Positions 41,571 to 59,104 of a stretch of DNA of 64,000 nucleotides are shown here, piece by piece. The stretch is from Lachnospiraceae bacterium (GTDB lineage: Bacteria > Bacillota > Clostridia > Lachnospirales > Lachnospiraceae): positions 6,301 to 70,300 of the forward strand of contig JAZQOO010000006.1 in the NCBI GenBank assembly GCA_045627905.1, written 5' to 3'. Below the pieces are notes generated by a model. That model saw nothing but the letters and a program-made list of their open reading frames with translations. It was not told where the DNA came from and made no database searches. The stretch's first letter is position 1, and every line of letters starts with the position of its first letter. The translations under genes and the position numbers were made by a program.

Positions 41571-41571
41571 A

Positions 41572-42257: not shown

Positions 42258-43532
42258 ATGGTTAAAGAAGAAATGAAAGAATTGTTAAAGTTGGCTTGGA
42301 AAGATGTTTTCAAGACAGAAGAAGCAGAGGATGATGCAGACTTTTTTGAAGCAGGCGGAGATTCGATAATGGCAGTACAGCTTTCTGCATGGCTTCTTCA
42401 GAAAGGTGTTAAGCTTGAACTTCAGGATGTATTTGCTACATCAAAGCTTGGAGATATGGTTGAAAAGCTTACAGAAACAACACCATTTTATGTACCAAAT
42501 GCACTTCTTACAAAAGAAATTGCAGCTAATGAAATGCAGGGAATGTTTGGAGGCATGTTTGGAGGTATGATGCCAAATAATGCACCTACTAATGAACAGG
42601 AACAGGCAGATGCTAGTAAGCTTCCAGAACAGCAGGTTTGCAGTACACCATTTACAGGAAATCAGCAGATGGATGGTCAGGCTGCATCACAGCAGGTATG
42701 TACACCAGATAATAGTCAGCAGGCATGTTCATCAATGAACAATCAGGAAATATGCAATCAGCAGATATGCTCATCACAGCAGATGTGTATGCCAATGAGC
42801 AGCCAGCAGGTATGTATGCCACAGCAGATGTGTATGCCAATGGGAAGTCAGCAGGTATGCATGCCACAGCAGATATGTATGCCAATGAATAGTCAGCAGG
42901 TATGTATGCCAATGGGAAGTCAGCAGGTATGTATGCCACAGCAGGTATGCATGCCAATGGGAAACCAGCAGATGTGCATGCCAATGGGAAGTCAGCAGGT
43001 ATGTATGCCAATGAATAATCAGCAGGTATGCATGCCAATGGGAAGTCAGCAGGTATGTATGCCAATGAATAATCAGCAGGTATGCATGCCAATGGGAAAC
43101 CAGCAGATGTGTATGCCAATGGGAAATCAGCAGATGTGTATGCCAATGGGAAATCAACAGATGTGCATGCCAATGGGAGGAAATGGCAATTTTTTTTTAG
43201 ATAAAGATAACGGATTGCCACCACAGTTGCAGAAGTATGTTTCAAAGGAAGTGGACGCTCCTATAGAAAATCCAAATATTATTAAAATAGAAAAGGCAAA
43301 GGTTTCAAAGCCTACAGTTCCAGCACCACAGGCACTTGAAATTGTTATGAATACATTAATGAATTCTTATGATAAGGAAAAGGATTTATTTGAGCAGGGT
43401 CTTACATCTTTAGATACAGTGAAAATGGTAACAAGATGTGGAGAAAACGGTTACAGTCTTTCACTTAAGGATATATACAAGGAACGTACATTTGATGCAA
43501 TTGTTGATTGTATGGTACCTGGAGAAGAATAA
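42258..43532 (+). CDS. Di-carrier protein: PCP/ACP domain, about 21 single-Cys QQxC(MPMxx) repeats, then a second carrier-like domain
   Basis: N-terminal Ppant motif DADFFEAGGDSIMAVQL. Repeat region at aa 125-308. C-terminal carrier-like motif DLFEQGLTSLDTVKMV...LSLKDIY..RTFDAIVD. GGAGAA RBS. Confidence 0.7.
   Translation: MVKEEMKELLKLAWKDVFKTEEAEDDADFFEAGGDSIMAVQLSAWLLQKGVKLELQDVFATSKLGDMVEKLTETTPFYVPNALLTKEIAANEMQGMFGGMFGGMMPNNAPTNEQEQADASKLPEQQVCSTPFTGNQQMDGQAASQQVCTPDNSQQACSSMNNQEICNQQICSSQQMCMPMSSQQVCMPQQMCMPMGSQQVCMPQQICMPMNSQQVCMPMGSQQVCMPQQVCMPMGNQQMCMPMGSQQVCMPMNNQQVCMPMGSQQVCMPMNNQQVCMPMGNQQMCMPMGNQQMCMPMGNQQMCMPMGGNGNFFLDKDNGLPPQLQKYVSKEVDAPIENPNIIKIEKAKVSKPTVPAPQALEIVMNTLMNSYDKEKDLFEQGLTSLDTVKMVTRCGENGYSLSLKDIYKERTFDAIVDCMVPGEE
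42630..43180 (+). repeat. In-frame tandem array of 27-nt and 18-nt units encoding QQ(V/M/I)CMPM(G/N/S)(S/N) and QQxCMP; degenerate at the 5' end and near-identical from about 42774
   Basis: Units such as cagcaggtatgtatgccaatgggaagt recur almost verbatim. About 21 QQxC units, each with exactly one Cys codon. Confidence 0.9.
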
Positions 43533-43544
43533 TAGGTAATTTTC

Positions 43545-43587
43545 ATCTGCCCCCTTCATTTCGAAAGCCGATATGTAGGGGGTAGAT
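43545..43587 (+). terminator. Candidate terminator/attenuator hairpin 13 nt after the di-carrier gene
   Basis: atctgccccct (43545-43555) pairs with agggggtagat (43577-43587): 11 bp including one G-U, with a 21-nt loop. The following TTGTTAT is only moderately U-rich. Confidence 0.4.
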
Positions 43588-43772
43588 TTGTTATACATGA
43601 TAACGCAAATGGTTCGCAGAGCGTGCCATTTCGTTATATAGACCAACGATGAAATCGTTGGTAGCCCGCCGTGCCATAGTATCGCATCGAAGATGTGATA
43701 CATTTGGAGGCATCAGAGAAATGACGTAAGGCATTTCTTCATTATTAACAGACCAACGATGGGAAATATAAT
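43588..43772 (+). promoter_or_regulatory. Structured leader with mutually exclusive pairings around the RBS of the C-domain gene
   Basis: The 11-nt gaccaacgatg occurs at 43641-43651 and 43751-43761. atcgttggt (43654-43662) is complementary to both. Further hairpins: aaatgg/ccattt (43607-43630) and agaaatg/catttct (43716-43737). Confidence 0.4.
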
Positions 43773-45995
43773 ATGAACAATAATTTTAATAATAATTTTT
43801 TTCAAATGATGAATATGAATTGGGGATTCCCGGGATTTCCTAATAATACTCAGGGTGGAAATATTAATCAAAATATGCTTCCAAATTGGATGCAAATGCA
43901 GTTTCCACAGTGGCAAAATACAAACGTTACACCAAACGTCAGGAGTGTGTCAGCACAGGTTGTAAAACAGGCTTCACAACCTAAACAGACGAATAATTCG
44001 CAGCAAAGTCCTGCACGTCAAATGCAGCCTGTTCAGCCTGCAAAGTCTGTTCAGTCTGTTCAGCCTGTTCAGCCTGTAAAGCCTACAGCAGACACCGAAA
44101 AAAAGAAAAGAACTGTTGAGATAGAGAATAAATATACTGTTAAAAATATATCGGATGATGATTTATACGAAATCTTTACGCAATATGGAAATAATATTGA
44201 GGATATATATGAGCTATCACCGGGACAGAAATGGATGTTTGAAAATGGTCATGAAGTCCATAACACACAGATGCTCCAGCTTGTAATTGAGGCAGAGTTA
44301 AAGCTTGACCCAGTTGCTTTTAGACATCAGTATGACAGTGTATGCAATAGACTTGAAAACCTTAGAAATGCTATTTGCTATACAAATCTTTCAAAGCCAT
44401 ACAGAGTTCTGCTTAAAAACAGGGAACAGCAGATGTACTTTGGTGTAATAGACAGTATAAGTGCAGATGCAACTGATGAAGAAAAAAAGAAGTTAATAGA
44501 TAAATTCTTAGCGGCCGACAGAGAGCGAGGCTTTGATATTGAAGGAGAACCTTTGATACGAGTTAAAGTGCTCAGGATACATGATACAGATAAATATATA
44601 TTTATTATATCTCAGCCTCATATCAATTCTGATGGTACAAGCGTTGGAGTTTTAATGAATGATTTGTTTATTGACTACGCATTGAAATTTGAAGGTATCG
44701 ATATTCCAGTCTGTGATAACTCATACACAAAGTATGCTGAATTTCTAGAAAAAGTAGATATAAAAAAAGAAATGGACTATTGGAAATCGTTATATTCGGA
44801 TATGCCAGAGCTTAAACAGTTGCCGGGAAGAAGAGTTTCAAGCAGAATATATCATCTTGGAAGCTATAAAGCAGAACTGAAAAAGTCTTCAATAGACGGT
44901 CTTAAGAAGCTTCAGTCCAGTACAAAGGCTACATTTTTTAATATATTACAGACAGCATGGGCAATAAGTCTTAATAAGTTACAAAAATCTGATGAGGTAT
45001 GCTTTGGAACTATTACATCAGGGCGTGATACGAGTGTTCAGGGAAGCATGATGCTTTCAGGAGAATTTGCTAATGTAGTGCCTATGAGAGTGAAGCTTGA
45101 TGATGATGAAACCTTTAAAGAGAGTGTAAGTAAATTACAAGCTTTATTTAACGAAAATAATAAGCATGCATATTGTACACCAAAGGAAATATGTAGTTCA
45201 CTTAATAGAAGTACACCATTGTTTGACCATCTGATTAATTATCATAATTTTGCAATAGCACCTGAAGATAATATGACAAAAGGATGTTTTGGCAATTTTA
45301 ATATAATAGGCGGTCAGGTATATGTTAGTCCAACGGAGGACCTAAACGTTGTATTTAGAACCGAGGGTGGACAGATGATGTGTTACATGGATTATAACCA
45401 GAATGTTTATCCTGAAAAAGCTGTTGTTGAATATGTAAAATATTTCAATAGAGTGATAGAAACAATTGCTAAGAAGGGTGTTGATATTAAAATATCTGAA
45501 ATTCCTAGACCGGATGATAGCGTGTTTGAAAAAATAGCAGGAATGTATGTAATGAACAATATTCAGATTGCTGAATTCCTTAAAGAAACTGACATTTTTT
45601 CAAACTTTGATTATAAGGAACTACTTGATTTGGCATCAAAATTCAGAGTTGATTATTATCATGACAGCCAGGTTATTGTTGAAGAACATTCCCAAAATGA
45701 TCGTTTCATGTTTGTTTTAGATGGAATGGTAGTTACAACGAAATGTAAAAATAATGCGTGGGATAATGTCGTTGAGGTTGTAAAAAATGGAAAAATCCTC
45801 ATTAATGGACTAGATAAGGATGGAGCTTCAGAATTTGGATTTGTCTCGATGTCAGACAATACAAAAATCCTGTCAATATCATATGATGAGATGATAGAAA
45901 TTATGAGTACTTATAAAGAGGTCTCTATTGCTGCTACTAAAGAAGTGTTAGACAAATATGTTAAATATGTAAAATTGTGGCTTAATGCAGAATAG
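43773..45995 (+). CDS. Stand-alone NRPS condensation (C) domain protein with a Q/N/M-rich N-terminus and a C-terminal cNMP-binding-like domain
   Basis: C-domain core IFIISQPHINSDGTSVGVL (xHxxxDG). The C-terminal about 140 aa (FLKETDIFSNFDYKELLDLASKFRVDYYHDSQVIVEEHSQNDRFMFVLDGMVV...) fits the cNMP-binding/CRP effector-domain pattern. Confidence 0.65.
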   Translation: MNNNFNNNFFQMMNMNWGFPGFPNNTQGGNINQNMLPNWMQMQFPQWQNTNVTPNVRSVSAQVVKQASQPKQTNNSQQSPARQMQPVQPAKSVQSVQPVQPVKPTADTEKKKRTVEIENKYTVKNISDDDLYEIFTQYGNNIEDIYELSPGQKWMFENGHEVHNTQMLQLVIEAELKLDPVAFRHQYDSVCNRLENLRNAICYTNLSKPYRVLLKNREQQMYFGVIDSISADATDEEKKKLIDKFLAADRERGFDIEGEPLIRVKVLRIHDTDKYIFIISQPHINSDGTSVGVLMNDLFIDYALKFEGIDIPVCDNSYTKYAEFLEKVDIKKEMDYWKSLYSDMPELKQLPGRRVSSRIYHLGSYKAELKKSSIDGLKKLQSSTKATFFNILQTAWAISLNKLQKSDEVCFGTITSGRDTSVQGSMMLSGEFANVVPMRVKLDDDETFKESVSKLQALFNENNKHAYCTPKEICSSLNRSTPLFDHLINYHNFAIAPEDNMTKGCFGNFNIIGGQVYVSPTEDLNVVFRTEGGQMMCYMDYNQNVYPEKAVVEYVKYFNRVIETIAKKGVDIKISEIPRPDDSVFEKIAGMYVMNNIQIAEFLKETDIFSNFDYKELLDLASKFRVDYYHDSQVIVEEHSQNDRFMFVLDGMVVTTKCKNNAWDNVVEVVKNGKILINGLDKDGASEFGFVSMSDNTKILSISYDEMIEIMSTYKEVSIAATKEVLDKYVKYVKLWLNAE

Positions 45996-46032
45996 AAGTG
46001 AAGGATACATAATACAGTAGGAGGAACAGTTA

Positions 46033-49000
46033 TTGAAAAAGGATATATCGATTGTAACACCATTTCATAATACAGAGATGAGTTTTTTTGAAAAAACAGT
46101 GTCCTCTGTTGTAGCTCAGTCACTTAATAAAGACAGCTTTGAGTGGGTTATTATTTTTCATAATTGTGCTGATAACTATATTGATGATGCAAAGGCTATT
46201 ATTGATAGAGACTGCAAGGATTTATGTACTAAGCTTTATTACCTTAAAGATGACACAAAAAGTCCTTCAGAACCTAGAAATGTTGGAATAAGAAATGCGG
46301 AAGGAAAATATTTATATTTTCTCGATTCTGACGATTTGGTTGATAAGGATTTTCTGTTAAAAGCGATTGAAATAGCAGAAACAGATTTGGCTGACATCGT
46401 ATTTGCAAAATCTGTTTCTGTGTCATTAAATGAGAATCTTGTTAAACTTCCCGTTCCGTTATTATTTTATGGTAGCGATGGAAAGCTTGTGATAGATAAT
46501 GAACGGTATAAATTAACAAAAGATGTAAGTGGTGCTAAGAAGGTTATTAGAAAAAATAGAGAGATATTAGGAAGATTTTTGTATGGTGCTCCAAATTATC
46601 TGGCAACTAAACTTATAAAAAGAGAGTTGTTAATTGATAATAATATCTTCTTTGATAAAAAATATCGAGTTATTGAGGATGTTCTATTTAACGTTTTAAC
46701 TATAGCTCGTGCTAAAAAGCTTGTCGTATTAACGGATGTTCAGGCATATACGTATTATCAGCGTGAGGGTTCACAGATTCAGTCACTATCAGAAAAAGGT
46801 GGTTTCACTAAAGAACTGTACTTAGAGCCACTTAAGGAAATAGCTGAAACCTGTGAAAAAGAAGATATTGATTACAATATTTTCCTTTGGAGTATGTTTG
46901 AAATGTTTGGAACGATGGTTCTAAAGGGTACATTGTCAAACGAAGAAAAAGAGGCGCTCATAATAGGAATGTCGCCATATAAGGAGAAGCTTAAAAAGAT
47001 ACCATATCTAGGAGAAAACGGCGCAAAGAATGCAGAGAGTATGCGTTTGTTTGCAAATATATTTATGCGCAATAATGCCTATGAGCATACAAATCAAGCA
47101 ATTACTGTCATTGATATGATAGAAAACACAAGAAATTTAAGTGGTAAAGCTGTTTGTATGGAAAATGGTGAAATAAGCTTTGAAGAGCTTCATGCTAAGT
47201 CCGACAAGGTTGCAGTATTCCTTCTGGAAAAGGGATACAAAAGGGGAAAAAGAATCGGACTTTGTATGAGAAAGAGCATTGATGCATATATTGCATTGTA
47301 TGGAATTATTAAAACAGGTGCTACGCTTGTTGTTATTTCTGGCTCTAACAGTAGTGAACGAAATGATTTTATAAAAAAAGACGCAAATATCGACTATTTC
47401 ATAGATGATGAGTGCTTTAATAATGTGCTTACTGAATGTGAACATATCTATAGTGAATATGAACCTATTAAAGTAAAGGGGACTGATGACTTTGTAATTA
47501 TTTATACGTCTGGTTCTGAGGGAAAGCCAAAAGGTGTCAGATTATCCAATATAAATGTTACAAATATGAATCTTTTACTTAAGGGGAATGAAAAAGCAAT
47601 ATATCAGTATTCAAATTGCAATACGTATCTTATGGCTATGGATATTGATTTTTTATTCGGGTTCCTCGTTTCATTAGAAGCAATGTTTTTTGGAAAAACA
47701 TTATATGTGTTAAAAGATGTATCAGATATAAATAGTGAATTTGCCAAAAAAGTTTTATTAGATGATAGTAATAAAATAAACATATCCTGTGTTCCTTCTG
47801 CAAGTGCATTTTGGTTTACAGACGGTAATATAAGTAAGCTACTAAAAAATGTAAGTATTGTTGCATTTGGTGGTGAGGGTGTCAAAAGGGAACTGATGGA
47901 TAGCGCTAAAAACGCACTTAAAGATGCCGCTATTTTTCAGGGATACGCAACTACAGAAACGGGTCCTGCATGTTATGAGCAGTATACGGGTGATGTGATA
48001 ACGGCGGGAGTACCTCAGGCGGATGTTATTGTATCTATTGTTGATGAAGATATTAATCCAGTTCCATTAGGCGAAAAAGGCAGAGTATGTATTACTGGTT
48101 ACAGAGTTTCTAAAGGATATTTAAATATTGATTCAGATGATTTTCTGCCAGCAAGAGATAATGTAAACACATTTATTTCAAAGGATGAAGGTTTTATTAA
48201 CGAAGAAGGAAGGCTTTGTATTACTGGTAGACTTGACAGAATGCAAAAGGTACATGGAGTTCGTATCGAACCTGCAGAGGTTGAAAATGCATTCCTTGAA
48301 TACAGTGGGGTAAATGAAGCAGCAGCAAAAATCATTGAAAAATCAGGTAAAAACAGTATATATATGTTTTACTGCTCAGAACGACAGTTAAATGAGTATG
48401 AAATCAGAAGCTTTTTATCAAAAAAGATACCATATTACATGATTCCTGATGGGTTTATTCGTATTAATAAAATGCCCCTCACAAATAGAGGTAAGCTTGA
48501 TTATAACAGCCTAAATCCAGCGGAGTATTTAGAAAATCAGGTTGAGAGTACTAAAAACTGTGGCAATGAGACAATAATAAGCAAATGCTTTAAGGAACTC
48601 CTAAATATTGAAAATGTAAATGTGGACTCTAATTTCTTTGCATTAGGTGGAGATTCACTTCTTGCTATAAAGCTTGTTGTTTTATTAGAACAGCATAATA
48701 TTAAAATAAAAGTAAAAGATATATTTGCTTTTCCTACACCGAGCTTACTTATGCAGTTTGTAGACAGTAATGAAGCAAGTACAGATAACAGTAAGGATAC
48801 CTTTGACTATTCGATAGCTGAAAAAAAGCGAATAATGGAAGGACTTGAAAAAATAGCTGTAAATGGAACTATTACTGCAAACAGAGGCGGACACAATGAG
48901 GAAATAAGGCTAGAGGATGTGCGTGACGCATATGCTGTTCATGGAACAATAAAGAACTATTTTGACATGCAGACTGAATTCAGAGAGGCGTTCAGATATA

Positions 49001-50142
49001 CTATTAGAATTCAGTTTGAAACAACAAAGAAAATAGATGAAGAATATATTACGAAACGGGTCAGACTTTTACAAAAGAAACATCCTGTGTTAAATTCTTA
49101 TTTTACGTATATAGATGGAGTAAAGAGACCCGAGTTCATTCAGCTTATATTAAATAAAAAGAGTATTCCAGTGTTCTACGAGGATTTATCTGATTTAAAT
49201 ATAGATGAAGGTGAAAAGCATCGAACAAGTCTATGGGAAAAGCTGGATACATTAAATGAATTTTTTACAGTTGCTTCGCTTAAAATATCAGAAGACCATT
49301 ATACAGTACTTGTGCGAATTAATCATGTTGTTGCGGACGCACTAAGCAGTAATATTTTGTTAAATGAGCTTGTATCAGACGAGCAGTTAATAGATACTTG
49401 CGAGGATAGATTTATTACGTGCCGAAATACAATGTTTAATGAAAAACAGGATGTCGAAGCAATAAAAAGCTTTTTTGATGATTATCTTAAGGATGCCAAG
49501 CTCTCAAGGGTTTATAAAGGTTCAGAAATATTGAGAAGCAGCAGAGAGATAGTTAATCGTAAAATAAAGATATCCTATGAAAAGTATTGTGAACTTTTAG
49601 ATGCTTGTAAGTGTAGAGGAATAATATTTAGTAATTATGTTCAGTACATATTTGGTAAAAGCCTTTTAAAGGCAATGAATGAGCGTGCGCTGATATTTTT
49701 AAGTATGTTTGCAGGAAGAAATAAAAATAACGTAAATACAGTTGACAATTATTTCAACATGTTACCAATATGTATCAGAGATGATATGAACATTTACAAA
49801 TTTCAGGAGAACTTAATTAAGCTATCTGAGCTATATTATCTCACAATTGATGAGCTAGGTGCAATTTTGAGAAAACCGTTCCATTTACTTGGTTGTGCAG
49901 ATGGAATAAATTCTAATCTGATAGATTCGGTGCTTGAAAGAGATGGGGTATATGATGCAAAACAAATTGTTTGGTCAGAGCTCAGAGGAAACAGGGCATA
50001 TATTGAGGACGGAAGCTTTGTAATTGAGATTTCAAATTACACGGATGAGCTGACAGATGTTATATATAATGAAATCGCAGGATATATGGAAGAAATGATA
50101 TGTAATGTTGAAGAATATTTAAAGGAGTTGGACAATGAGTAA
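46033..50142 (+). CDS. Multidomain NRPS-like protein: GT2 glycosyltransferase, adenylation, carrier, condensation
   Basis: GT2: ISIVTPFHN...EPRNVGI...YLYFLDSDD. A: IIYTSGSEGKPKGV, GYATTETG, GRLDRMQKVHGVRIEPAEVE, NRGKLD. T: FFALGGDSLLAIKL. C: RINHVVADALS. TTG start with AGGAGG RBS. Confidence 0.8.
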   Translation: MKKDISIVTPFHNTEMSFFEKTVSSVVAQSLNKDSFEWVIIFHNCADNYIDDAKAIIDRDCKDLCTKLYYLKDDTKSPSEPRNVGIRNAEGKYLYFLDSDDLVDKDFLLKAIEIAETDLADIVFAKSVSVSLNENLVKLPVPLLFYGSDGKLVIDNERYKLTKDVSGAKKVIRKNREILGRFLYGAPNYLATKLIKRELLIDNNIFFDKKYRVIEDVLFNVLTIARAKKLVVLTDVQAYTYYQREGSQIQSLSEKGGFTKELYLEPLKEIAETCEKEDIDYNIFLWSMFEMFGTMVLKGTLSNEEKEALIIGMSPYKEKLKKIPYLGENGAKNAESMRLFANIFMRNNAYEHTNQAITVIDMIENTRNLSGKAVCMENGEISFEELHAKSDKVAVFLLEKGYKRGKRIGLCMRKSIDAYIALYGIIKTGATLVVISGSNSSERNDFIKKDANIDYFIDDECFNNVLTECEHIYSEYEPIKVKGTDDFVIIYTSGSEGKPKGVRLSNINVTNMNLLLKGNEKAIYQYSNCNTYLMAMDIDFLFGFLVSLEAMFFGKTLYVLKDVSDINSEFAKKVLLDDSNKINISCVPSASAFWFTDGNISKLLKNVSIVAFGGEGVKRELMDSAKNALKDAAIFQGYATTETGPACYEQYTGDVITAGVPQADVIVSIVDEDINPVPLGEKGRVCITGYRVSKGYLNIDSDDFLPARDNVNTFISKDEGFINEEGRLCITGRLDRMQKVHGVRIEPAEVENAFLEYSGVNEAAAKIIEKSGKNSIYMFYCSERQLNEYEIRSFLSKKIPYYMIPDGFIRINKMPLTNRGKLDYNSLNPAEYLENQVESTKNCGNETIISKCFKELLNIENVNVDSNFFALGGDSLLAIKLVVLLEQHNIKIKVKDIFAFPTPSLLMQFVDSNEASTDNSKDTFDYSIAEKKRIMEGLEKIAVNGTITANRGGHNEEIRLEDVRDAYAVHGTIKNYFDMQTEFREAFRYTIRIQFETTKKIDEEYITKRVRLLQKKHPVLNSYFTYIDGVKRPEFIQLILNKKSIPVFYEDLSDLNIDEGEKHRTSLWEKLDTLNEFFTVASLKISEDHYTVLVRINHVVADALSSNILLNELVSDEQLIDTCEDRFITCRNTMFNEKQDVEAIKSFFDDYLKDAKLSRVYKGSEILRSSREIVNRKIKISYEKYCELLDACKCRGIIFSNYVQYIFGKSLLKAMNERALIFLSMFAGRNKNNVNTVDNYFNMLPICIRDDMNIYKFQENLIKLSELYYLTIDELGAILRKPFHLLGCADGINSNLIDSVLERDGVYDAKQIVWSELRGNRAYIEDGSFVIEISNYTDELTDVIYNEIAGYMEEMICNVEEYLKELDNE

Positions 50143-50473
50143 AGAAGAAATGAAGGAATTTTTAGTTGAGGCATGGAAGGAAGTATTTCAGGTAGAGGAA
50201 GTATCAGACGATGCAGATTTCTTTGAGGCTGGTGGAGATTCAATAAATGCAGTACAGTTAACTGCCTGGTTAGTTCAAAAGGGTGTTAAGCTTGATCTTG
50301 GAGATATTTTTATCTATTCAACTGTAGGTGAATTAAGTGAACATCTTACAGAGACAACACCTGTATATGTTCCAGAAGCACTCCTTACAATGGATGTTGC
50401 ATCAAAAGAAATGAGAGAACAGTTATTCTCAAATGGTATGCCGGGTGCAGATTTACCATTTCTTAAGAAATAA
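50135..50473 (+). CDS. Stand-alone carrier protein (PCP/ACP), paralogue of the N-terminus of the 42258 protein
   Basis: DADFFEAGGDSINAVQL Ppant motif. By eye, roughly two-thirds identical to aa 1-95 of the di-carrier protein, including the post-domain tail LTETTP.YVP.ALLT. Overlaps the upstream stop by 8 nt. Confidence 0.8.
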   Translation: MSKEEMKEFLVEAWKEVFQVEEVSDDADFFEAGGDSINAVQLTAWLVQKGVKLDLGDIFIYSTVGELSEHLTETTPVYVPEALLTMDVASKEMREQLFSNGMPGADLPFLKK

Positions 50474-50495: not shown

Positions 50496-51713
50496 ATGAG
50501 ATACGACGATACAAACTTTCTTGAAGTGCGTGAAAAACTGAATACGTTAGAAACAGTTCTTGATATGCTTAAAGGTTCGGTAGATGACAAATCATTTAGT
50601 GCAAAACTAAGACGCTACCAAGGTATAATGGTAATGTGTAATACGCTCTTATTTGATGTTGCAAATATCGATGACTATGATGATTTATTTGATTCTTCGC
50701 TAAATGAAAAACGAACCAATAATGAGGTTTTATCAAGATGTGAAGATTATTACAATTTTATAAAAAATATTTATTTAGAAAGAAAAGAATTACCCCTGTC
50801 AATTGACAGAAACTTTAAAAAAATATGCGATCAGTCAAAATATGTCTCATATGATAATTTAGTTAAGCTTGTAAAAGAGAGATTACTAAAAAAAGACGAA
50901 AACATGCTTTCTAATTATAAAAAGTTTTTTGATAAATTTGAGCATTTTTGGGGAAAGCTAGATGTTAAAGCTGAGAATTTTGAAGTAATAACTAAAAGAA
51001 TGGAAATTCTTAAGGCTAATATAGAAGATTTTATTTCGGTTTATGAAGAGTTAGCAGATAACAGGTCAAAGGCCGTTCTTACAGGATATTTGCATAACTG
51101 GCTGACTATGTCAGAGGATGATATTTTTGACATGGGTGAACGAATATTCTTTGATTATGCTGATTTTGATATATGCAAATGTGACAGCAATGAGATTATC
51201 GCGGACATTGGTGCATATAACGGCGATTCGGCACTAGGATATATTTATTCATATGGAAGCTATAAAAAAATGTATTGCTACGAAATAACGCCATCTTCGT
51301 TTGAAAAGCTTAGCGATAATCTAAAGGGATACGAAAATATTATCTTATGTAGAAAGGGAGTAGGAAGCAAATACTCAGAGACTAACCTCGATATAAAAGA
51401 TGATGCGTATTCAAATGATATTACAAGTAAGGGTGATTTAAAAACAGAAATAGTTACTCTTGATGAGGATATAAAGGATAAACTTACTCTTATCAAAATG
51501 GATATAGAGGGTGCTGAAAAAGATGCTTTAAAAGGTTGTGTAAATCACATAAAAAATGAAAAGCCAAAGCTTTTGATTTGTGTTTATCACGGAAATACAG
51601 ATATATTTGAAATTCCAAAGCTTATCAAGGAAATGAGGAGTGACTACAAATTTTATTTAAGAAGCAGCGGCTGGCAGTATGCACCATCAGAGATTGTACT
51701 GTACGCATTGTAA
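50496..51713 (+). CDS. FkbM-family SAM-dependent methyltransferase with an N-terminal extension of about 220 aa of unknown function
   Basis: C-terminal half has FkbM-type motifs (IIADIGAYNGDSA...LIKMDIEGAEKDALKG...KPKLLICVYH). The N-terminal half is helical with no recognised domain. Confidence 0.7.
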   Translation: MRYDDTNFLEVREKLNTLETVLDMLKGSVDDKSFSAKLRRYQGIMVMCNTLLFDVANIDDYDDLFDSSLNEKRTNNEVLSRCEDYYNFIKNIYLERKELPLSIDRNFKKICDQSKYVSYDNLVKLVKERLLKKDENMLSNYKKFFDKFEHFWGKLDVKAENFEVITKRMEILKANIEDFISVYEELADNRSKAVLTGYLHNWLTMSEDDIFDMGERIFFDYADFDICKCDSNEIIADIGAYNGDSALGYIYSYGSYKKMYCYEITPSSFEKLSDNLKGYENIILCRKGVGSKYSETNLDIKDDAYSNDITSKGDLKTEIVTLDEDIKDKLTLIKMDIEGAEKDALKGCVNHIKNEKPKLLICVYHGNTDIFEIPKLIKEMRSDYKFYLRSSGWQYAPSEIVLYAL

Positions 51714-51740
51714 CATAGGTATTTAAAGAAAGAGGATTGA

Positions 51741-53243
51741 ATGAACTACGAAAATATATGCATGAATTGTGAAAGTGAAACATTTAGAAATCTGTTTTTT
51801 TCCGCAGCTAATAATAATCCAGATAAAATAGCGTTGGAATACAGATTCGGAAAGGTTCAGTATACATATAAGGAACTCGCAGATAACATAGTTTCTCTTG
51901 GAAGCTATTTGTACAGTACAGGACTTTCTAAAAAACGTATAGCACTTCTTGGCGCTAGGGAACTTCCTTTTATTTACTTTATTTTAACTGCATTATGCAG
52001 TGATATGGTTATGTCACCAATCGACGCAAAGATGAGTAAAGAGGATATTTTAAAGCGTATTGAAATAGTAAAACCAGAGATTGTTTTTACATTCAGTGAT
52101 GTAGATGAAGAATTGTTGAATGAACTTAAAAATGGAAAAGTTGAGAGTGTTGACGAAAATAAGCTCAATGAGTTATTTGAACAGGGAAACAAGCTATTAG
52201 AAGAAGGATACGAAGATTATATTACGGCTACTATTAAGGAAACTGACCCTGGAATGCTTGTTTTTACATCAGGCACAGGTGGTACAATAAAGGCTGCTGT
52301 ATTAAGTCATAGATCTGTTACTGCATCTAGAATTTCAAAGCAGACAATATATATGAAGCCGGTAGATGTGCTTCATGTTATGCCAATGTTCCATATAGGT
52401 GGAATTGCTGACTTGACAGGAACTCTTATGGCAGAGGGTAAAGTATATATGAGTCAGGGTATGCAGTTTCTATTAAAGGAATTTGCATATGTTAAGCCAG
52501 GAACATTTATAACGGTTCCAGGTCAGGCACAGTTTTTCTTGGAAATCATCAAAGACAAGAGCGTCGAAGAGGGAAGGGAAGTATTAGGTGGAAGACTTAA
52601 GCTTCTAAGAACATGTGGTGCAATGCTGATGGACTCTCTTGTGGCAGGCTTTGAAAAGTTTGATATTACTGTTACTAGTGAATACGGAATGACGGAAAGT
52701 GCGACAGCGTGTACAAGCGCAGTTGTTAGGGATGGTGTTGTATGGACTAAGAGAGGCTCTGTAGGACATATTGTAAATCCGTATCTTGTAGACATATTTG
52801 AAAAGGATAGTGAGGGACGTGGAGAAATAATAATCGGAGGACCTTATATTTTCAATGGTTATTTGAATAACGAAGAAGCTACAAGGGAAATGCTTGTTGA
52901 TGGTTTTGTTCATACTGGAGATATAGGCTATTTTGACGAGGATGGTTTCTTATTCTTAACTGGAAGAAAGAAAAATGTAATCATTGTCTCAACGGGAGAA
53001 AATGTTGTTCCTGAAGAAATTGAAGAGCAGATATATTCAATCGATGGTGTGAAAGAATGTCTTGTGTACAGCAAAGATGACGTGATTGCCGTAGATATAT
53101 ATACTGAAAGTGACGAAGAGTACATAAGAAATGAAATATTTAAAATAAATAAGATTAACTCTAATTACAAATGTGTAAGAACTATTAATTTTACGAAAGA
53201 GCCACTGAAAAAGACATCAACAGGTAAAATCGCGAGGTCATAA
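51741..53243 (+). CDS. Stand-alone AMP-dependent ligase (FadD/acyl-CoA-synthetase-like adenylating enzyme)
   Basis: LVFTSGTGGTIKAAVLSH, MPMFHIGG, EYGMTES, HTGDIGYFDEDGFLFLTGRKKN and TGKIAR motifs. No carrier domain. Confidence 0.8.
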   Translation: MNYENICMNCESETFRNLFFSAANNNPDKIALEYRFGKVQYTYKELADNIVSLGSYLYSTGLSKKRIALLGARELPFIYFILTALCSDMVMSPIDAKMSKEDILKRIEIVKPEIVFTFSDVDEELLNELKNGKVESVDENKLNELFEQGNKLLEEGYEDYITATIKETDPGMLVFTSGTGGTIKAAVLSHRSVTASRISKQTIYMKPVDVLHVMPMFHIGGIADLTGTLMAEGKVYMSQGMQFLLKEFAYVKPGTFITVPGQAQFFLEIIKDKSVEEGREVLGGRLKLLRTCGAMLMDSLVAGFEKFDITVTSEYGMTESATACTSAVVRDGVVWTKRGSVGHIVNPYLVDIFEKDSEGRGEIIIGGPYIFNGYLNNEEATREMLVDGFVHTGDIGYFDEDGFLFLTGRKKNVIIVSTGENVVPEEIEEQIYSIDGVKECLVYSKDDVIAVDIYTESDEEYIRNEIFKINKINSNYKCVRTINFTKEPLKKTSTGKIARS

Positions 53244-53246
53244 TAA

Positions 53247-56153
53247 ATGTACAAAACTGCTCAGCAGCTATTATTAAAAACAGAAGGAATAGAAATATTA
53301 TATAATGGTGCAGTTACCTCTAGAGATTCATTTGTAGAAAAGGTTGATAATATTGCTAAAAATATAAGGCTGTCAGGTATTAATACTGGGCAGCCTATAA
53401 TACTAAAAATGTGTGATGCAAAAAATGAGTATATAGCGCTGTGTGGAATAATTCGCTCAGGAGCATGTGTGGTTCCAGTGAGTGCCGATATCCCTAGTAC
53501 AAGATTACAAAGCATCACTAAAATGATAAATGCGGAATGCATTATAAGCGATGATAATTTTGATAAATATGCAGGCATTCCAAATGAATCAGTAGATATT
53601 GACTATGCAGATGAAAATGACAATGCACTTATTTTATTTACATCAGGTACAACCGGTGTACCTGAAGGCATTAAACATACGCAGAAAAGTCTTTTGTATA
53701 TTATTAAATGTGTCACAGATTTTATTGTAAAAAATAAAATTCAAGTTAATAATGTATATTCAATAACTGAGTTTTCCTATATTTCATCATTCCTTTTTGA
53801 AATAGGAGTGACATTATTTCATACAAAAAAAATAATAATATCTGATAAAAAAAGTAGAAATGTTGTATCAAAAATAAACGAAGATGTTAAGGGACAAAAT
53901 GACCTTATTATGTTTATGACACCTTCGAAATTTAGAGCTTTTTTTAGTGACATAGATTTTAGAGAAACATTAAAGCAGGTTTCAATGTTCTGCTTTGCTG
54001 GAGAGGCTCTATCAGATGAGGATAAAAATAGTTTTATTAAAGTATTTAATGATAACAGTTATGTTGCGAATTTCTATGGAAGTTCTGAATGTGGGCTTAT
54101 TTTTTCATATGATGTAAAAAACAATACAGTTTATACTTTTAATCCATATATTATTGTTGATGATAATGGAAAGGTCAGCGAAAAATCTGGTCAGGTGTAT
54201 GTAAATGCAGAATATTGTTTAGTGGGATATACGGGTGAGCGAAGCCTGAAAATATATAATCTCGATAATATAGATTATTATGGAACTGGAGATTTTGTTG
54301 AGATAGAAGGGAACATACCTAAATTAAGAGGAAGAATAGATAGAATGATAAAGCTTCATGGTTTAAGAGTGGAGCTTGACGACATTGAAGAACACATCCG
54401 TCATATATCGTATATTGGCGAATGTGCTGTTGTTTTTGACAGGGAAAAAGAAAGAATTGTTGCATTTATTATAGCAAATAATACGTTAGATTATGGCATA
54501 AACTTTCAGTCTGATATACGAGCTAAGCTATCAGATGTTTTGCCGTATTATATGATACCTGCCTATTTTGTAGAGCTTGAAAGCTTGCCATATAACAGCC
54601 ATCAAAAGACAGATTACTATTTATTGCAGCAGAAGGCAAAGGAACTTGAGCTAGCAGAAATCAGCAAAGCTGACAGAAACATCGAAGGAAAATTTGAATA
54701 TATCAATGACGATAGATATTTTGCGCTTAAAGAGGCATTAAAGGCAGTAATAGGAGATGTAGAAATAAATCCGTCAGATTCTATTATAGAGCTTTCAATT
54801 GATTCACTTAAGGCAATTACATTGCAAAATGAGTTGAGAAAGAAAAGTCTGAATATTTCTTTAAGTGATATATTTATCCATCCAGTTATCAGTGAACTAT
54901 ATAAATACATAAATGAAATAAAAACACCTGACAATAATATCATTAATGATACAAAGAATGATAAGGAATACAAATTCAAAATTATAACAGATTTTCATAA
55001 AATGGTGTTGTCTGCACAGTTAAGCAATAATCACATGCTGGCTATGTGGGTTGAAGACAAATTCATTGGTAAAAGGTCATTTACAGAAGAGACATTTTAT
55101 GAACGACTTAGAGCGGTTTTAATGAGACATCCAGCTCTTAGAAGCAGGTTTTATGTTGAAGCAAAAGAGTATTTTCAGGAAATAGATAAGAATATCACAA
55201 ATATAAAAAATTATGGTGAATATATCGACATAACTACAATGGCAGAAGGAACTATTGGTACTATTTCTAGTAAGCAGAAGGAATACATAGAAAAAAACTT
55301 TAACAAATTATATGCTGATGAAACATTACAAGGTAAGCCATTCTATGTATTCTGTCACCAGATAGATAATGAACATTGCGTAATAACGATGAGAATTTCA
55401 CACGTATGTGCAGATGGTGTTAGTGTATCAATACTCAGAGCGGATTTTTTAAACGAGGAAATAGAAGAGTCAGAAGATTCATATTTTGAATATAGAGAAT
55501 GGTACACTGATGAGGCGGAAAGAGAAAAGGCATTTAATTTTTATCTAAATTATATAAAAGGAGCGGCGTTTGCAAGACTCCCGATAATTAGCTTTGGAAA
55601 TCCATTTGAAGCGCAAAATGTCAAAGAGTATGACATTGATTTAGGTGATGTTAATAGCTTAAATACAGTTACGCCGTTTATGAGTGTTCTTTATAGATAT
55701 GGAAAAGCAGCGTTAGAGGTGCTTGGCTTAAAAAAAATGATGTTTTATATGACTTCCTCAGGAAGAAGTGTTAATGTGCGGGATATGGACAGCTTAGTGT
55801 CTGGTATTTCGTATAGAATGCTTGTTGTAATATCTGAGGATGATACTATAGAAACGTTTATGAGTGGGGTATATGAAGCAGAAAAGCATATGTGTGTAAG
55901 GCCAGAAGAAATATGGGTAAAACGCTATGGGAAGGATGTAAATCTCATAAATCTGCCTATTATAACGTCTGAATATTTTAGAGACCTTACAGATGGAAGA
56001 TGCACAAAGGTGTTAAATCCAGTCACTCCAGATACTATGGGGTTAAGCAGCTTTTTCTACATTGAAAATGAAAGAATGAAGCTTAAAATGGGCTGCAATA
56101 CTAACATAATGGATATAGATGTATTTGAGAAAATAATAGGAGCATTAATTTGA
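53247..56153 (+). CDS. NRPS module A-T-C
   Basis: A: LILFTSGTTGVPEGIKH, GTGDF, LRGRIDRMIKLHGLRVELDDIE. T: IELSIDSLKAITLQ. C: RISHVCADGVS. Confidence 0.8.
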   Translation: MYKTAQQLLLKTEGIEILYNGAVTSRDSFVEKVDNIAKNIRLSGINTGQPIILKMCDAKNEYIALCGIIRSGACVVPVSADIPSTRLQSITKMINAECIISDDNFDKYAGIPNESVDIDYADENDNALILFTSGTTGVPEGIKHTQKSLLYIIKCVTDFIVKNKIQVNNVYSITEFSYISSFLFEIGVTLFHTKKIIISDKKSRNVVSKINEDVKGQNDLIMFMTPSKFRAFFSDIDFRETLKQVSMFCFAGEALSDEDKNSFIKVFNDNSYVANFYGSSECGLIFSYDVKNNTVYTFNPYIIVDDNGKVSEKSGQVYVNAEYCLVGYTGERSLKIYNLDNIDYYGTGDFVEIEGNIPKLRGRIDRMIKLHGLRVELDDIEEHIRHISYIGECAVVFDREKERIVAFIIANNTLDYGINFQSDIRAKLSDVLPYYMIPAYFVELESLPYNSHQKTDYYLLQQKAKELELAEISKADRNIEGKFEYINDDRYFALKEALKAVIGDVEINPSDSIIELSIDSLKAITLQNELRKKSLNISLSDIFIHPVISELYKYINEIKTPDNNIINDTKNDKEYKFKIITDFHKMVLSAQLSNNHMLAMWVEDKFIGKRSFTEETFYERLRAVLMRHPALRSRFYVEAKEYFQEIDKNITNIKNYGEYIDITTMAEGTIGTISSKQKEYIEKNFNKLYADETLQGKPFYVFCHQIDNEHCVITMRISHVCADGVSVSILRADFLNEEIEESEDSYFEYREWYTDEAEREKAFNFYLNYIKGAAFARLPIISFGNPFEAQNVKEYDIDLGDVNSLNTVTPFMSVLYRYGKAALEVLGLKKMMFYMTSSGRSVNVRDMDSLVSGISYRMLVVISEDDTIETFMSGVYEAEKHMCVRPEEIWVKRYGKDVNLINLPIITSEYFRDLTDGRCTKVLNPVTPDTMGLSSFFYIENERMKLKMGCNTNIMDIDVFEKIIGALI

Positions 56154-59104
56154 ATACAATACAGAGCGTAGTACTTTCAAAACGAAATAAGTATACAGGT
56201 ACTGCTATTGAGTGTGGTAGTAAAAAAATAAGCTATAGCGAATTCGATTTACTGACAGATAAAATAGCGACAGGTCTTTCTGACAATGGAATTAGACCCG
56301 GAGATAAGGTAATAATAAACCTTGGACGAAGTATCGAGATGGTATTGGCAATGTTTGGTATTTTAAAGACGGGAGCTGCTTTTGTACCTATCGCTAAAGA
56401 TACTCCAGCAGAAAGATTAAATTCAATAATGAAGACAAGTGGTGCTAAGCTTGTCTTTGATATGAATTATTATGAGCAAATAGCTTCAAAAAGTGATAGA
56501 TGTAATGTGCAGTTTGAGCCGATTATGGCAAGCGAAGATGATCCTGCGATTGTGCTTTATACATCAGGTTCTACAGGCGAGCCAAAGGGTGTATGTCAGA
56601 ATCAGGCAGCTGTAAAGCTTTTATTTGAACAGTTTCCGTATAATATAAATACGAATGGAATAGCTGTAGAGGATTTTGATACATGTATTGCAAGACTGAA
56701 TTATGCATTTATTGTTGCATATCATTATGAGTATCCAGTTGCGCTACTTAATGGGAAAAAGCTTGTCCTATTAAATGACGACGAGCAGAATTCTATTGTC
56801 GATACATGCAGAGTGTTAGAAGAAAATGAACGTTGTTTGGTGGCTATATTACCTTCTCAGCTAGCTGTATATATGGAAAATGACAGTTTTAAAAAGGCAA
56901 TGCGACATATTAAGTGCTTATGTTTTTTTGCAGAACCTGTAGCAGAATATGTTATAAATAGCATTTTAGAAGTAGATGGCTTTGAGGGAAGTGTTGTGTC
57001 AGTATATGGAACAACCGAAACCTTTGGCGTTGCATGGCAGGATTTTAGAGATAGTAAGCGAGGGATGATTGTATCTAATCATGTCGATTTTAAGCTTTTA
57101 GATGATGAAGGAAAAGATACTTTAGTTGATTGCATGGGCGAAATAGTAGTAAAGTCGCCAACTATTTTTAGCGAATATTATATGACTGACAGTGACTTAT
57201 GTAATAGGTCGTTTGATGCAAAGAATTTATATATTGACAGTAAGCGTTACGTAAGAACAGGAGATATGGGAATACGTGATGAATCTGGAAGAATTACACT
57301 GTGTGGCAGAAACGACAGAATGGTTAAATTCCATGGGCAGAGGGTGGAACTTCCTGAAATAGAGAATGTAATTAAGCGCTTTGAAGGAATAAGAAATTGC
57401 TGTGCAATTTTAGGAAAAGGAAAATCAGGGAAGAAACTTCTTGTTGCCTATTACGAGGGTGTAAGTGAGCAGGAAATTGATGAAAAAAGTCTGACACAGT
57501 ATATTAAGGACTATTTGCCACCATATATGATTCCATCGATGTATATTAAGCTTCCTATTATACCGCTCAATGCAAATGGTAAAATAGACTATAAGCAGTT
57601 ATCAGCAATAGAGATTGAAGATACGTTTACTGTAGAAAATATACATAAGTCTGATGAAGAAAAAGCAAAAGAGACAACGCAAGAAAAGCTTATTATAAGT
57701 GAGAGTGCTAATATTTTAAAAATGTCAGAGGATGCGATATCTGTTACAAGCAATTTAAAAATGCTAGGTATGGATTCGCTAATGGTAGTGCTTTTGATAA
57801 GTGCGTTAAGGGAAGCTGGATATGTATTAACTATTGAAGATTATGTATCAGCGTCGAATGTCAGCGAAATTGCAAAGTCACTTAAGAAAAAAGACAAAGA
57901 CTTACATAAAGCTTCAAAGGAAGAGTCGGATGTATATGAATGTACTCAGATGCAGAGTCTATGGGTTAAAGAGCGATTTGTTGTAGTATCTAATTTCCTG
58001 GCATACATAGGCATTGATGAAGAAATAATTGCTAATAGAGTTGCAATGTTATCACGAAAACATCAGGCTTTGCGAAGCGAGTTTTATAATAATGAAAATA
58101 TATATAAAACAAAAGTAGTGAAAGATAAAGCGGTTAATTACGACTATTATGATGCAAGACGCCTGCTAAAAGATGGCGAGATATCTCCTAGGCAGTCAGC
58201 ACTTATAAACATGAAAACAATGGAGCTGTTTAGTGGTTTAAGTGAGGATGCAATGTTTCATCTATGTGTAGTAAGGCTAAAGGATGACCTGACATGTCTT
58301 ATTATGGCGTGTGACCACAGGGTTGTTGATGGAATGAGTGAAAAGGTATTATTTGACGAGCTGACATCTGGATTTGAAAATGAAGAAAATGATAAATATA
58401 TTGAATATCTTGACTATATCAACAGTGATATAAATGTAGAGGCTGCACGAAGCTTTTACAGAGAATATGTTTCTGGTTCAAGGATAGTACCTGTAACATT
58501 AAATAAAGAACATACAGGAAAGCCAAATATTAAAAGCTTTGGAATTACAATAGAAAAGAATACTATCGGAAGACTTGAGGAGGTTTGGAAAAAGGAGAAT
58601 GTCTCTGCATTTGCATACATTATGTATCAGTATGCAAGAACTCATATGGAGTTATCTGGTTTTGACGATATTATTATTCCGATGGGATGTTCAGGAAGAT
58701 GTCTGGATTTAGACAGCATGAACTGCATGGTTGGCTGTCTCGTTAATCAGATTCCCGTGCGTTGCAAAAAAACAGACAGCATCAATGATTTTATGAAATC
58801 ATATCTGATTGCTGATAAATATGGTTTTATTAAAGATACGGACATTTTCGAGGATGATGAGGACAGGGAAAAGCTAAATTTAGTTCCAAGTATTATGTCT
58901 GAGATTTTTCCAGGAAATGTAATTAGAACGAAATGGTCATATTTTAGAGAGCCATCATTTTTAAATATACCACGTGGTAACTTCTTGTGGGAGGATGACG
59001 CCGGTATGCACATTACTTTCCATATTGATACAGATATATGGGATGAGGAATATATTCAGAAAATGGTAAATTTATTTGAGGTAAAACTAAATGCTGAAAA
59101 TTGA
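56150..59104 (+). CDS. NRPS module A-T-C
   Basis: A: IVLYTSGSTGEPKGV, YGTTET, RTGDMG, GRNDRMVKFHGQRVELPEIE, NGKIDY. T: LKMLGMDSLMVVLL. C: ACDHRVVDGMS. TTG start overlaps the upstream stop; AGGAG RBS. Confidence 0.8.
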   Translation: MNTIQSVVLSKRNKYTGTAIECGSKKISYSEFDLLTDKIATGLSDNGIRPGDKVIINLGRSIEMVLAMFGILKTGAAFVPIAKDTPAERLNSIMKTSGAKLVFDMNYYEQIASKSDRCNVQFEPIMASEDDPAIVLYTSGSTGEPKGVCQNQAAVKLLFEQFPYNINTNGIAVEDFDTCIARLNYAFIVAYHYEYPVALLNGKKLVLLNDDEQNSIVDTCRVLEENERCLVAILPSQLAVYMENDSFKKAMRHIKCLCFFAEPVAEYVINSILEVDGFEGSVVSVYGTTETFGVAWQDFRDSKRGMIVSNHVDFKLLDDEGKDTLVDCMGEIVVKSPTIFSEYYMTDSDLCNRSFDAKNLYIDSKRYVRTGDMGIRDESGRITLCGRNDRMVKFHGQRVELPEIENVIKRFEGIRNCCAILGKGKSGKKLLVAYYEGVSEQEIDEKSLTQYIKDYLPPYMIPSMYIKLPIIPLNANGKIDYKQLSAIEIEDTFTVENIHKSDEEKAKETTQEKLIISESANILKMSEDAISVTSNLKMLGMDSLMVVLLISALREAGYVLTIEDYVSASNVSEIAKSLKKKDKDLHKASKEESDVYECTQMQSLWVKERFVVVSNFLAYIGIDEEIIANRVAMLSRKHQALRSEFYNNENIYKTKVVKDKAVNYDYYDARRLLKDGEISPRQSALINMKTMELFSGLSEDAMFHLCVVRLKDDLTCLIMACDHRVVDGMSEKVLFDELTSGFENEENDKYIEYLDYINSDINVEAARSFYREYVSGSRIVPVTLNKEHTGKPNIKSFGITIEKNTIGRLEEVWKKENVSAFAYIMYQYARTHMELSGFDDIIIPMGCSGRCLDLDSMNCMVGCLVNQIPVRCKKTDSINDFMKSYLIADKYGFIKDTDIFEDDEDREKLNLVPSIMSEIFPGNVIRTKWSYFREPSFLNIPRGNFLWEDDAGMHITFHIDTDIWDEEYIQKMVNLFEVKLNAEN

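Follow-up and report, generated by a model that had tools for sequence, protein, structure and literature searches.

Gene Content of the Locus

The window analyzed here, a 64,000-nt stretch of contig JAZQOO010000006.1 from an uncultured gut Lachnospiraceae bacterium, contains an NRPS-like (nonribosomal peptide synthetase-like) locus of eight co-directional genes (g1 to g8, positions 42258–59104, all on the plus strand). A first-pass annotation, made from the sequence alone, had described these genes as mostly overlapping or abutting. Open reading frame (ORF) calling recovers all eight at the same positions; g3 and g4 overlap by 8 nt, g7 and g8 overlap by 4 nt, and 3 nt separate g6 from g7. The adenylation (A), thiolation (T, or carrier), condensation (C), GT2 glycosyltransferase, and FkbM methyltransferase domains proposed at that stage are each supported by Pfam profile hidden Markov models, with no call failing, and the A3, phosphopantetheine (Ppant)-site, and C-domain core motifs quoted for them are all present in the translations.

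The first gene, g1 (42258–43532), encodes a carrier scaffold in which two PP-binding stretches (Pfam) flank a cysteine-rich repeat region. It is followed by g2 (43773–45995), which encodes a disordered N-terminus rich in Asn, Gln, Pro, and Met, a C domain, and a C-terminal domain with a cyclic-nucleotide-binding (CNB) fold. The g3 product (46033–50142) is a GT2-A-T-C protein (Pfam Glycos_transf_2, AMP-binding, PP-binding, and Condensation), g4 (50135–50473) encodes a free T domain (PP-binding), and g5 (50496–51713) encodes an FkbM-family methyltransferase domain (aa 235–380, identified by Pfam and also above the TIGR01444 cut-off) preceded by a helical N-terminal region. A free-standing adenylating enzyme (AMP-binding) is encoded by g6 (51741–53243), and g7 (53247–56153) and g8 (56150–59104) each encode an A-T-C protein (AMP-binding, PP-binding, and Condensation).

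Adenylating Enzymes and Predicted Building Blocks

There are thus four adenylating enzymes: the NRPS-type A domains of g3, g7, and g8 and the free g6. We aligned the three A domains to GrsA-PheA, checked by the recovered code DAWTIAAICK, and to 20 canonical A domains from the g3 search described below; the 10-residue specificity code was interpreted at position 235 only. All 20 reference domains contain Asp235, whereas the 14 sequences from the g3, g7, and g8 families all lack it. The position is Leu or Ile in g3, Val or Ile in g8, and either Ser or Ile/Leu in g7, depending on the alignment, with no Asp at or beside it in either case. Lys517 is retained in all three. Motif A5 (YGPTE) has likewise lost its usual Pro in all three, which is weaker evidence, as two Thr-type references lack this Pro too. 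Among related loci on other contigs (numbered with the prefix L), position 235 is occupied by Ala, Gly, Ser, Val, or Glu in the modules beside homologs of g1 and g2 in L010–L031, and the canonical Asp is found only in the multimodular NRPSs of the most distant loci, L032–L034.

Asp235 is essential for the activation of alpha-amino acids, while domains for hydroxy and keto acids have a small or aliphatic residue in its place: Ala or Gly in alpha-hydroxy-acid domains and Ile in the keto-acid domain of StsA, with Val found in McyG and Asn in aryl-acid enzymes (PMC11253843). Because Asp235 is missing from all three NRPS-type A domains, from their orthologs, and from most related loci, the building blocks of g3, g7, and g8 are probably hydroxy, keto, or other carboxylic acids and not alpha-amino acids.

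This prediction bears on the product suggested in the first-pass annotation, either a lipopeptide bearing sugar and methyl groups or an aminoacylated glycan. If the building blocks are not alpha-amino acids, neither product is expected, and with Asp235 absent from every ortholog and the A5 Pro replaced as well, we now regard both as unlikely. In their favor, the A domains score best against the amino-acid adenylation and DltA models, all below cut-off, and the closest overall relative of the g8 A domain is the second A domain of LgrA (residues 1240–1713 of the chain), which we take to be Gly-activating. Moreover, an amino-acid importer is part of the operon (see below), and L032–L034 pair homologs of g1 and g2 with canonical Asp235 modules.

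The same annotation had labeled g6 as FadD-like, specifically as resembling a fatty-acyl-AMP ligase. The enzyme resembles oxalate-, malonate-, and fatty-acyl-CoA ligases as well as luciferases, and by these matches it is of the acyl-CoA-ligase type; the narrower label is not supported by any feature specific to fatty-acyl-AMP ligases.

C Domains, Carriers, and Module Layout

The cores of the four C domains, PHINSDG in g2, NHVVADA in g3, SHVCADG in g7, and DHRVVDG in g8, conform to xHxxxD(G/A). The first His of the HHxxxDG motif is replaced in each, as had been noticed from the translations, and the catalytic His and the structural Asp are invariant in the orthologs; by motif, all four C domains are catalytically intact. 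Their best matches are ordinary in-line NRPS C domains (bacitracin synthase 3). Further matches of the g8 C domain are the terminal C_T domain of TqaA and chain 4znm, which we take to be the ester-forming SgcC5.

Six carrier domains, with the Ppant motifs GGDSI (twice), GGDSL, SIDSL, GMDSL, and GLTSL, serve four A and four C domains, and a C domain closes each multidomain protein; the domain calls agree on both points with what had been read by eye. The order is therefore A-T-C rather than the canonical C-A-T with a terminal thioesterase (TE) or reductase (R) domain. We scanned ORFs of at least 100 aa up to position 38000 and of at least 80 aa beyond it, apart from a few opposite-strand ORFs wholly inside called genes, and no TE (including PF00975), R, MbtH, or phosphopantetheinyl transferase (PPTase) family was matched in any of them. 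Nor did Pfam match a ketoreductase or short-chain dehydrogenase/reductase domain in any protein of the cluster. The claim that the locus lacks a release domain is thus formally true, but the terminal C domain and a conserved esterase-type hydrolase (see below) are candidates for this role.

The free carrier g4 is a paralog of the first T domain of g1, to which it is roughly 70% identical as judged by eye, and it is without a counterpart in the closest syntenic loci, L001, L005, L006, and L007. In orthologs of g7 (L001 6538–7776, L005 5998–7197, and L007 1680–3080) a Pro/Met/Gly-rich insertion (PGMPPMPPMP..., about 90 aa long in L007) occurs between the two lobes of the C domain. It is absent from g7 of the window and recalls, in composition, both the repeats of g1 and the g2 N-terminus.

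The equal numbers of A and C domains, and the position of the C domain at the end of each multidomain protein, would also fit a convergent scheme in which each A-T-C protein is a self-contained acyl transferase acting on one small scaffold, such as an imported amino acid or a sugar or polyol that the GT2 domain makes or attaches, to give a poly-acylated, methylated glycoconjugate. Two further observations fit such independent units: the order of the A-T-C genes is shuffled between orthologous loci, and family members have from one to three A-T-C proteins. Stand-alone C-type enzymes that acylate free acceptors include VibH, the Pap acyltransferases, and SgcC5. In Lachnospiraceae the free-standing C enzyme OaaC acylates a free acceptor (PMC13310621). 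Nevertheless, the best match of the C domains to ordinary in-line enzymes speaks against this scheme, as do one module in L010 and L017 that ends in FkbM without a C domain and the absence from the window of scaffold-forming enzymes other than the GT2 domain. We consider it somewhat unlikely.

The GT2 and FkbM Domains

The best sequence matches of the GT2 domain of g3 (46033–47082) are TarS, TarP, and RmlT, at 18–22% identity, and GalT1. Its AlphaFold model (predicted local distance difference test, pLDDT, of 81) has a GT-A fold and includes a helical C-terminal subdomain, and Foldseek matched TarP, RmlT, and TarS to it over the whole of about 350 residues (TM score 0.6–0.67). The DSDD motif is invariant in the orthologs. 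S-glycosyltransferases of the SunS/ThuS type are not among the sequence matches (E ≤ 0.01) nor among the top 50 fold matches. TarP, TarS, and RmlT are enzymes that O-glycosylate polyol hydroxyls, and this resemblance is a further point for acylation of a common polyol or sugar scaffold. There are no teichoic acid genes near the cluster, and poly-ribitol-phosphate is an unlikely acceptor; because the GT2 domain is fused to an A-T-C module, we propose an acceptor that is either carrier-bound or a small molecule.

The FkbM gene adjoins or overlaps g3 in orthologous loci, its domain is fused to a module as A-T-FkbM in L010 and L017, and in L023–L025 it is a separate ORF immediately following A-T. 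As it is coupled to the g3-type module and is fused behind a carrier in relatives, the gene arrangement suggests that FkbM most likely methylates the tethered unit.

The Cysteine-Repeat Carrier and the g1–g2 Cassette

Full-length members of the g1 family share one layout: a first carrier domain (T1, GGDSI; 42285–42464 in the window, aa 10–69), the repeats (42624–43184), a Met-rich stretch, a conserved Lys/Pro-rich segment, and a second carrier domain (T2, GLTSL...VTRCGE; 43284–43514). In the window the Cys/Met/Gln/Pro repeat is a 27-nt tandem repeat with the unit SQQVCMPMG. The repeat region contains 21 of the 23 cysteines of g1, and 20 cysteines occur in the context QQ(V/I/M/A)C, mostly followed by MPMG, with a period of nine residues.

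We examined the 122 central cysteines of 19 full-length g1-family proteins that are at most 50% identical to each other. Relative to the Cys, position −2 is Gln in 93%, position −1 is Leu, Ile, Val, or Met in 97%, position +1 is Thr, Met, Asp, or Ser in a combined 97%, and position +2 is Pro in 89%. Copy number ranges from 1 to 24 and the spacer from 6 to about 20 residues. Because the motif persists across variable spacer lengths and copy numbers, these alignments identify the Q-hydrophobic-C-x-P repeats as a selected short linear motif and not a mere linker. The repeats may serve, in descending order of preference, as covalent thiol stations, multivalent docking sites, or modification sites. 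In L010 (8524–9920) the g1 homolog is split over two frames within the repeat region, and the gene caller reported only a carrier of 102 aa; this split probably reflects an error made in sequencing or assembling the tandem repeat.

In nearly all related loci g2 comes after g1. A two-gene cassette, consisting of a T-(Q-hydrophobic-C-x-P)n-T carrier and a C domain fused to a CNB domain, is the family's hallmark. The cassette is rare: a search of 1.84 billion proteins with the T2 end of g1 yields no more than 37 representatives (E < 1e-10), most of them from ruminant gut metagenomes, and the g2 family comprises 26 further clusters, all without a name. Disordered stretches rich in Met, Pro, Gln, and Gly, similar to those of g1, occur at the N-terminus of g2 and within the C domain of g7 orthologs.

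In the Pfam search, g2 matches Condensation with an E value of 2e-58 and cNMP_binding only weakly, below threshold, with an E value of 0.006; PF00027 is precomputed for many of the g2 orthologs listed. The AlphaFold2 model of the C-terminal 165 residues (45498–45992; pLDDT 91) matches the CNB domains of GlxR, CRP, PKA-R, and PKG in Foldseek with TM scores of 0.7–0.77 and a root-mean-square deviation of about 2 Å. According to this model, g2 ends in a true cyclic-nucleotide-binding fold, an eight-stranded beta-barrel with flanking helices, and the cNMP-like domain suspected from the sequence is thereby confirmed. The Glu, Arg, and Ser of the canonical phosphate-binding cassette, as defined by E. 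coli CAP, are unconserved in 26 family members, and on these grounds we rejected the idea that g2 binds cAMP in the canonical way. The g2 family does have a conserved KLWxNA tail at the C-terminus.

The repeats raise the further possibility that g1 is itself the substrate or the platform of the product, its cysteines being S-acylated, S-glycosylated, or otherwise modified at up to about 20 sites per protein. The conservation of the motif against a background of variable spacing and copy number would agree with this, as would the adjacency of g1 and g2, the co-transcribed cystine-type importer, and the recurrence of a radical SAM enzyme in relatives. However, no protease or recognizable peptide-modifying enzyme is present, and we know of no C domain that acylates a protein cysteine. 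A role for g1 as substrate or product platform is improbable in our view.

Two specific modifications were rejected individually. S-glycosylation of the repeat cysteines by the GT2 domain disagrees with its matches, which are teichoic-acid O-glycosyltransferases with no SunS-type enzyme in the sequence search or the top 50 folds, and with L010, which has the repeats but no glycosyltransferase of any kind. Formylglycine formation at C-T-P by a radical SAM maturase disagrees with the residue at position +4, which is Gln, Gly, Met, or Ala instead of Arg; the radical SAM enzymes of related loci are of the BtrN, MoaA, and BlsE types, with anaerobic sulfatase maturases not among the matches, and there is no radical SAM enzyme in the window.

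Cluster Extent, Importer, and Hydrolase

The first-pass annotation delimited the cluster at 42258–59104. The genes within this span are as described, but the cluster extends past g8 to 61958 through a translationally coupled ATP-binding cassette (ABC) importer of the cystine type. The start of the ABC ATPase gene (59091–59759, plus strand; best match TcyN) overlaps the end of g8. It is followed on the same strand by a substrate-binding protein of the polar amino acid type (SBP_bac_3; 59759–60583), whose solved relatives include B. subtilis YtmK, annotated as an amino-acid-binding protein, and by two permeases (60590–61958) with a cystine ABC permease as best match. The best matches of the importer thus point to an L-cystine system. 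In orthologous loci the genes for the binding protein and the two permeases lie amid the NRPS genes, and the binding protein is the best conserved protein of the cluster, at 59–67% identity compared with 30–45% for the synthetases.

On the other side, an alpha/beta hydrolase gene (38848–39612, plus strand; Pfam Abhydrolase_6) with the nucleophile elbow AHSMTG probably belongs to the cluster too, encoding a probable accessory esterase or thioesterase. Its best solved relatives are of the methyl-esterase type: SABP2, pyrethroid hydrolase, polyneuridine-aldehyde esterase, and methylketone synthase 1. An ortholog with 50% identity is encoded directly upstream of g1 in L014 and L015. In the window the two are separated by 39739–42111, which encodes a 426-aa protein, whose sole match is a weak lipoprotein-like N-terminus, and two half-size chromate transporters; because the hydrolase gene abuts g1 in L014 and L015, these three genes look like an insertion.

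Downstream, the segment 61977–64000 adjoins the importer and encodes an SstT serine/threonine transporter (above the equivalog cut-off), followed by what we read by eye as the presumed start of an iron-sulfur L-serine dehydratase gene. SstT and the putative dehydratase form a separate, ordinary serine-utilization unit that marks the downstream border of the cluster. Rfam has no match to a known RNA or riboswitch in the window, and scans for promoters and terminators gave no informative signal.

Related Loci

A search with g3 against 5.8 billion word-indexed clusters returned 565 scored matches, with the GT2-A-T-C architecture in only four 90%-identity clusters, one of them the window's own. 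None of the four is named, and the other matches listed are generic NRPSs with 21–28% identity, which agrees with the earlier impression of an NRPS-like architecture unlike anything characterized. The contigs encoding GT2-A-T-C proteins carry the same genes, arranged differently; they derive from sheep rumen and other gut metagenomes, a Blautia metagenome-assembled genome (MAG), and an uncultured Lachnospiraceae MAG. Conserved blocks are g1 with g2, g6 with g7, the binding protein with the two permeases, g3 with g5, and g8.

A metagenome scan added 21 more loci, with 34–58% GC. The modules around the cassette vary and include A-T-FkbM, C-GT2, GT2-APH (kinase-like), and GT8-A fusions, GT1 glycosyltransferases, and radical SAM enzymes. 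The fusions are found at L012 315–3155 (P0152), L010 16398–19796, and L011 10177–14224; the C-GT2 fusion, of 946 aa, has GT2 in place of the CNB domain, and the A-T-FkbM fusion has 1132 aa. Further accessory genes in the family encode a MATE exporter fused to HATPase_c_2, a type II thioesterase, a PPTase, a GH3 ligase, and STAS and SpoIIE regulators. The PPTase gene lies beside the cassette in L011, L033, and L034, and the type II thioesterase and PPTase are features of the more distant members. Because family members encode other glycosyltransferases, a MATE exporter, a type II thioesterase, and a PPTase, we predict from gene content that the family typically consists of gene clusters for small-molecule biosynthesis, whose products would usually be glycosylated.

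STAS proteins, HATPase_c_2 anti-sigma-type kinases, SpoIIE phosphatases, and MATE-HATPase_c_2 fusions recur beside family clusters (L005 19935–23474, L033 and L034 894–9017, and L012 11693–12895), with none in the window. A polyamine operon upstream of L010 was judged unrelated to the cluster, since genes on both strands lie between it and the cassette. Among the generic NRPS matches, P0025 and P0027 are C-A-T-R synthetases with an internal PilZ domain, a hint of cyclic di-GMP control of some NRPSs, and the annotated source of P0032 is the anaerobic rumen fungus Piromyces sp. E2, which fits exchange of NRPS genes between rumen bacteria and fungi.

Proposed Pathway

Our tentatively preferred reading is that the locus encodes an NRPS-like thiotemplate pathway of secondary metabolism whose product is a glycosylated, O-methylated oligo-acyl compound of the ester or depside type, probably without a peptide backbone. 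Domain identities, pocket features, and gene couplings are observed directly, and from them we infer the order of steps. The free adenylating enzyme g6 would load a starter acid onto a carrier of g1 or onto g4, the duplicate specific to the window. The C domain of g2, whose gene is nearly always beside g1, would perform the first transfer, a step possibly gated by the ligand of the CNB domain. Each A-T-C protein would then load its own acid, and its C domain would hand the chain to the next carrier-bound hydroxyl, forming ester bonds; the inverted module borders would simply mean that the proteins break after the C domain instead of before it. The unit on g3 would be glycosylated and methylated while tethered. 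Finally, the last C domain would release the chain by transferring it to a free nucleophile, for which the imported amino acid is a candidate, with release or editing by the esterase-type hydrolase as an alternative. We propose release by a C domain because of a precedent in Lachnospiraceae, the fatty acid amide (FAA) pathway, in which a free A enzyme and a carrier are combined with a free C enzyme (OaaC) that releases the product onto a free amine (PMC13310621).

Several points weigh against this oligo-ester pathway. The substrates of the A domains are predictions from their pockets, and the loss of Asp235 is suggestive rather than decisive: McyG has Val at this position, a conserved Asp remains two residues upstream in g3 (IDF), and the g8 A domain has its closest overall relative in LgrA, as noted above. 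In the absence of a ketoreductase, keto acids would provide no nucleophile for the next condensation. The gene order differs between orthologous loci, so the order of modules is not fixed. The amino-acid importer has no explanation alongside A domains for non-amino acids unless an amino acid is the release nucleophile, and the second carrier of g1 and its cysteine repeats are left without a role in an assembly line for non-amino acids. Finally, the window contains no exporter, PPTase, or TE.

Going beyond this scheme, the g1–g2 cassette could constitute a new type of thiotemplate initiation unit, pairing a carrier whose two Ppant arms flank 1–24 copies of the motif, as additional covalent thiol, multivalent docking, or modification sites, with a C enzyme gated by a small-molecule ligand of its CNB-fold domain. 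Combined with a glycosyltransferase domain inside an NRPS-like module, which would be the first of its kind, it would give gut anaerobes a novel way of building non-peptide glyco-esters. We offer this as a speculative proposal that is, on present evidence, rather unlikely to be correct in full.

Comparison with Characterized Systems

Measured against canonical NRPSs for amino acids, the locus has the carrier GxxS and the C-domain His but departs from them in Asp235, in module order, and in the release domain. Its resemblance to depsipeptide synthetases is partial. Like the hydroxy- and keto-acid modules of the cereulide/valinomycin type (StsA) and of enniatin synthetase A1, it has Asp235 replaced and carrier-bound units joined by C domains (PMC11253843). 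Unlike them, it has no embedded ketoreductase, no alternating amino-acid modules, and no TE, and it consists of A-T-C proteins accompanied by GT2 and FkbM, with 21–28% identity to any characterized synthetase.

The FAA pathway (OaaA, OaaACP, and OaaC) shares with the locus its occurrence in Lachnospiraceae, a free adenylating enzyme, a carrier, a free-standing C enzyme, and TE-free release onto a small nucleophile (PMC13310621). That pathway, however, consists of three small proteins and one condensation, compared with four A domains, four C domains, GT2, FkbM, a Cys-repeat scaffold, and a C-CNB protein here. Chain 12kh, a solved "Condensation Domain Protein" that may be a counterpart of OaaC, is marginally matched by the g3 C-domain profile (E 0.004) but not in the searches with g2 or the g8 C-domain profile.

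The F-A-T-C initiation module of LgrA, in which a tailoring domain modifies the tethered unit, resembles g3 in placing the tailoring domain before A-T, followed by a C domain in one protein; the tailoring domain is a formyltransferase in LgrA and a GT-A glycosyltransferase in g3. LgrA chains are also among the solved-structure matches of the g8 A domain. The GT2 domain of g3 corresponds to TarP, TarS, and RmlT in sequence and fold over its whole length of 350 residues and in the invariant DxD, but it is fused to an NRPS-like module and is without their trimerization or C-terminal domains. Likewise, the CNB domain of g2 shares the fold of CRP- and PKA-type CNB domains without their phosphate-cassette residues, and its partner is a C domain, in contrast to the DNA-binding, kinase, or channel modules with which known CNB domains are combined.

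We know of no glycosyltransferase domain within an NRPS module, although our search was not exhaustive, and in the literature we found nothing matching on GT2-NRPS fusions, on A-T-C proteins with FkbM, or on S-glycosyltransferases with carrier proteins. Thus for three features we found no described precedent: the glycosyltransferase domain in an NRPS-like module, the C-CNB fusion, and the two-carrier Cys-repeat protein. The parts have known folds and the logic is NRPS-like, but no characterized relative was found in these searches.

If the A domains do select non-amino acids, and if GT2 and FkbM act on tethered intermediates, NRPS machinery would reach glycosylated ester products, and an in-line glycosyltransferase and a ligand-gated C domain would be gained as parts for engineering. 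The cysteine-repeat carrier has a sharply defined motif that can be approached directly by intact-protein mass spectrometry. Members of the family occur only in a few uncultured Clostridia from ruminant guts, where small-molecule chemistry is largely unexplored and may affect community ecology.

Other Features of the Window

Besides the cluster, the window contains a flagellar/chemotaxis operon, transporters, and metabolic genes. The operon (28–23413) is complete, encoding MotB, FliL, FliM, FliN(Y), CheY, FliO, FliP, FliR, FlhB, FlhA, and FlhF as well as a MinD-like protein, a YcgR-type PilZ protein, CheB, CheA, CheW, CheC, CheD, a FliA-type sigma factor, and FapA, which indicates that the host is a motile member of the Lachnospiraceae. 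Its FlhA is 87–88% identical to proteins of Lachnospiraceae MAGs.

Between 24000 and 28000 the GC content falls to about 30%. A CAP/SCP-domain protein is encoded on the minus strand at 23518–24087, and an ORF of 100 aa at 25116–25418 has a sub-threshold Pretoxin-HINT/Hint match (26.6 bits, with a cut-off of 27.7). The low-GC segment may be the remnant of a polymorphic-toxin or mobile insertion. A stand-alone PilZ-domain protein is encoded at 38073–38804, just upstream of the hydrolase.

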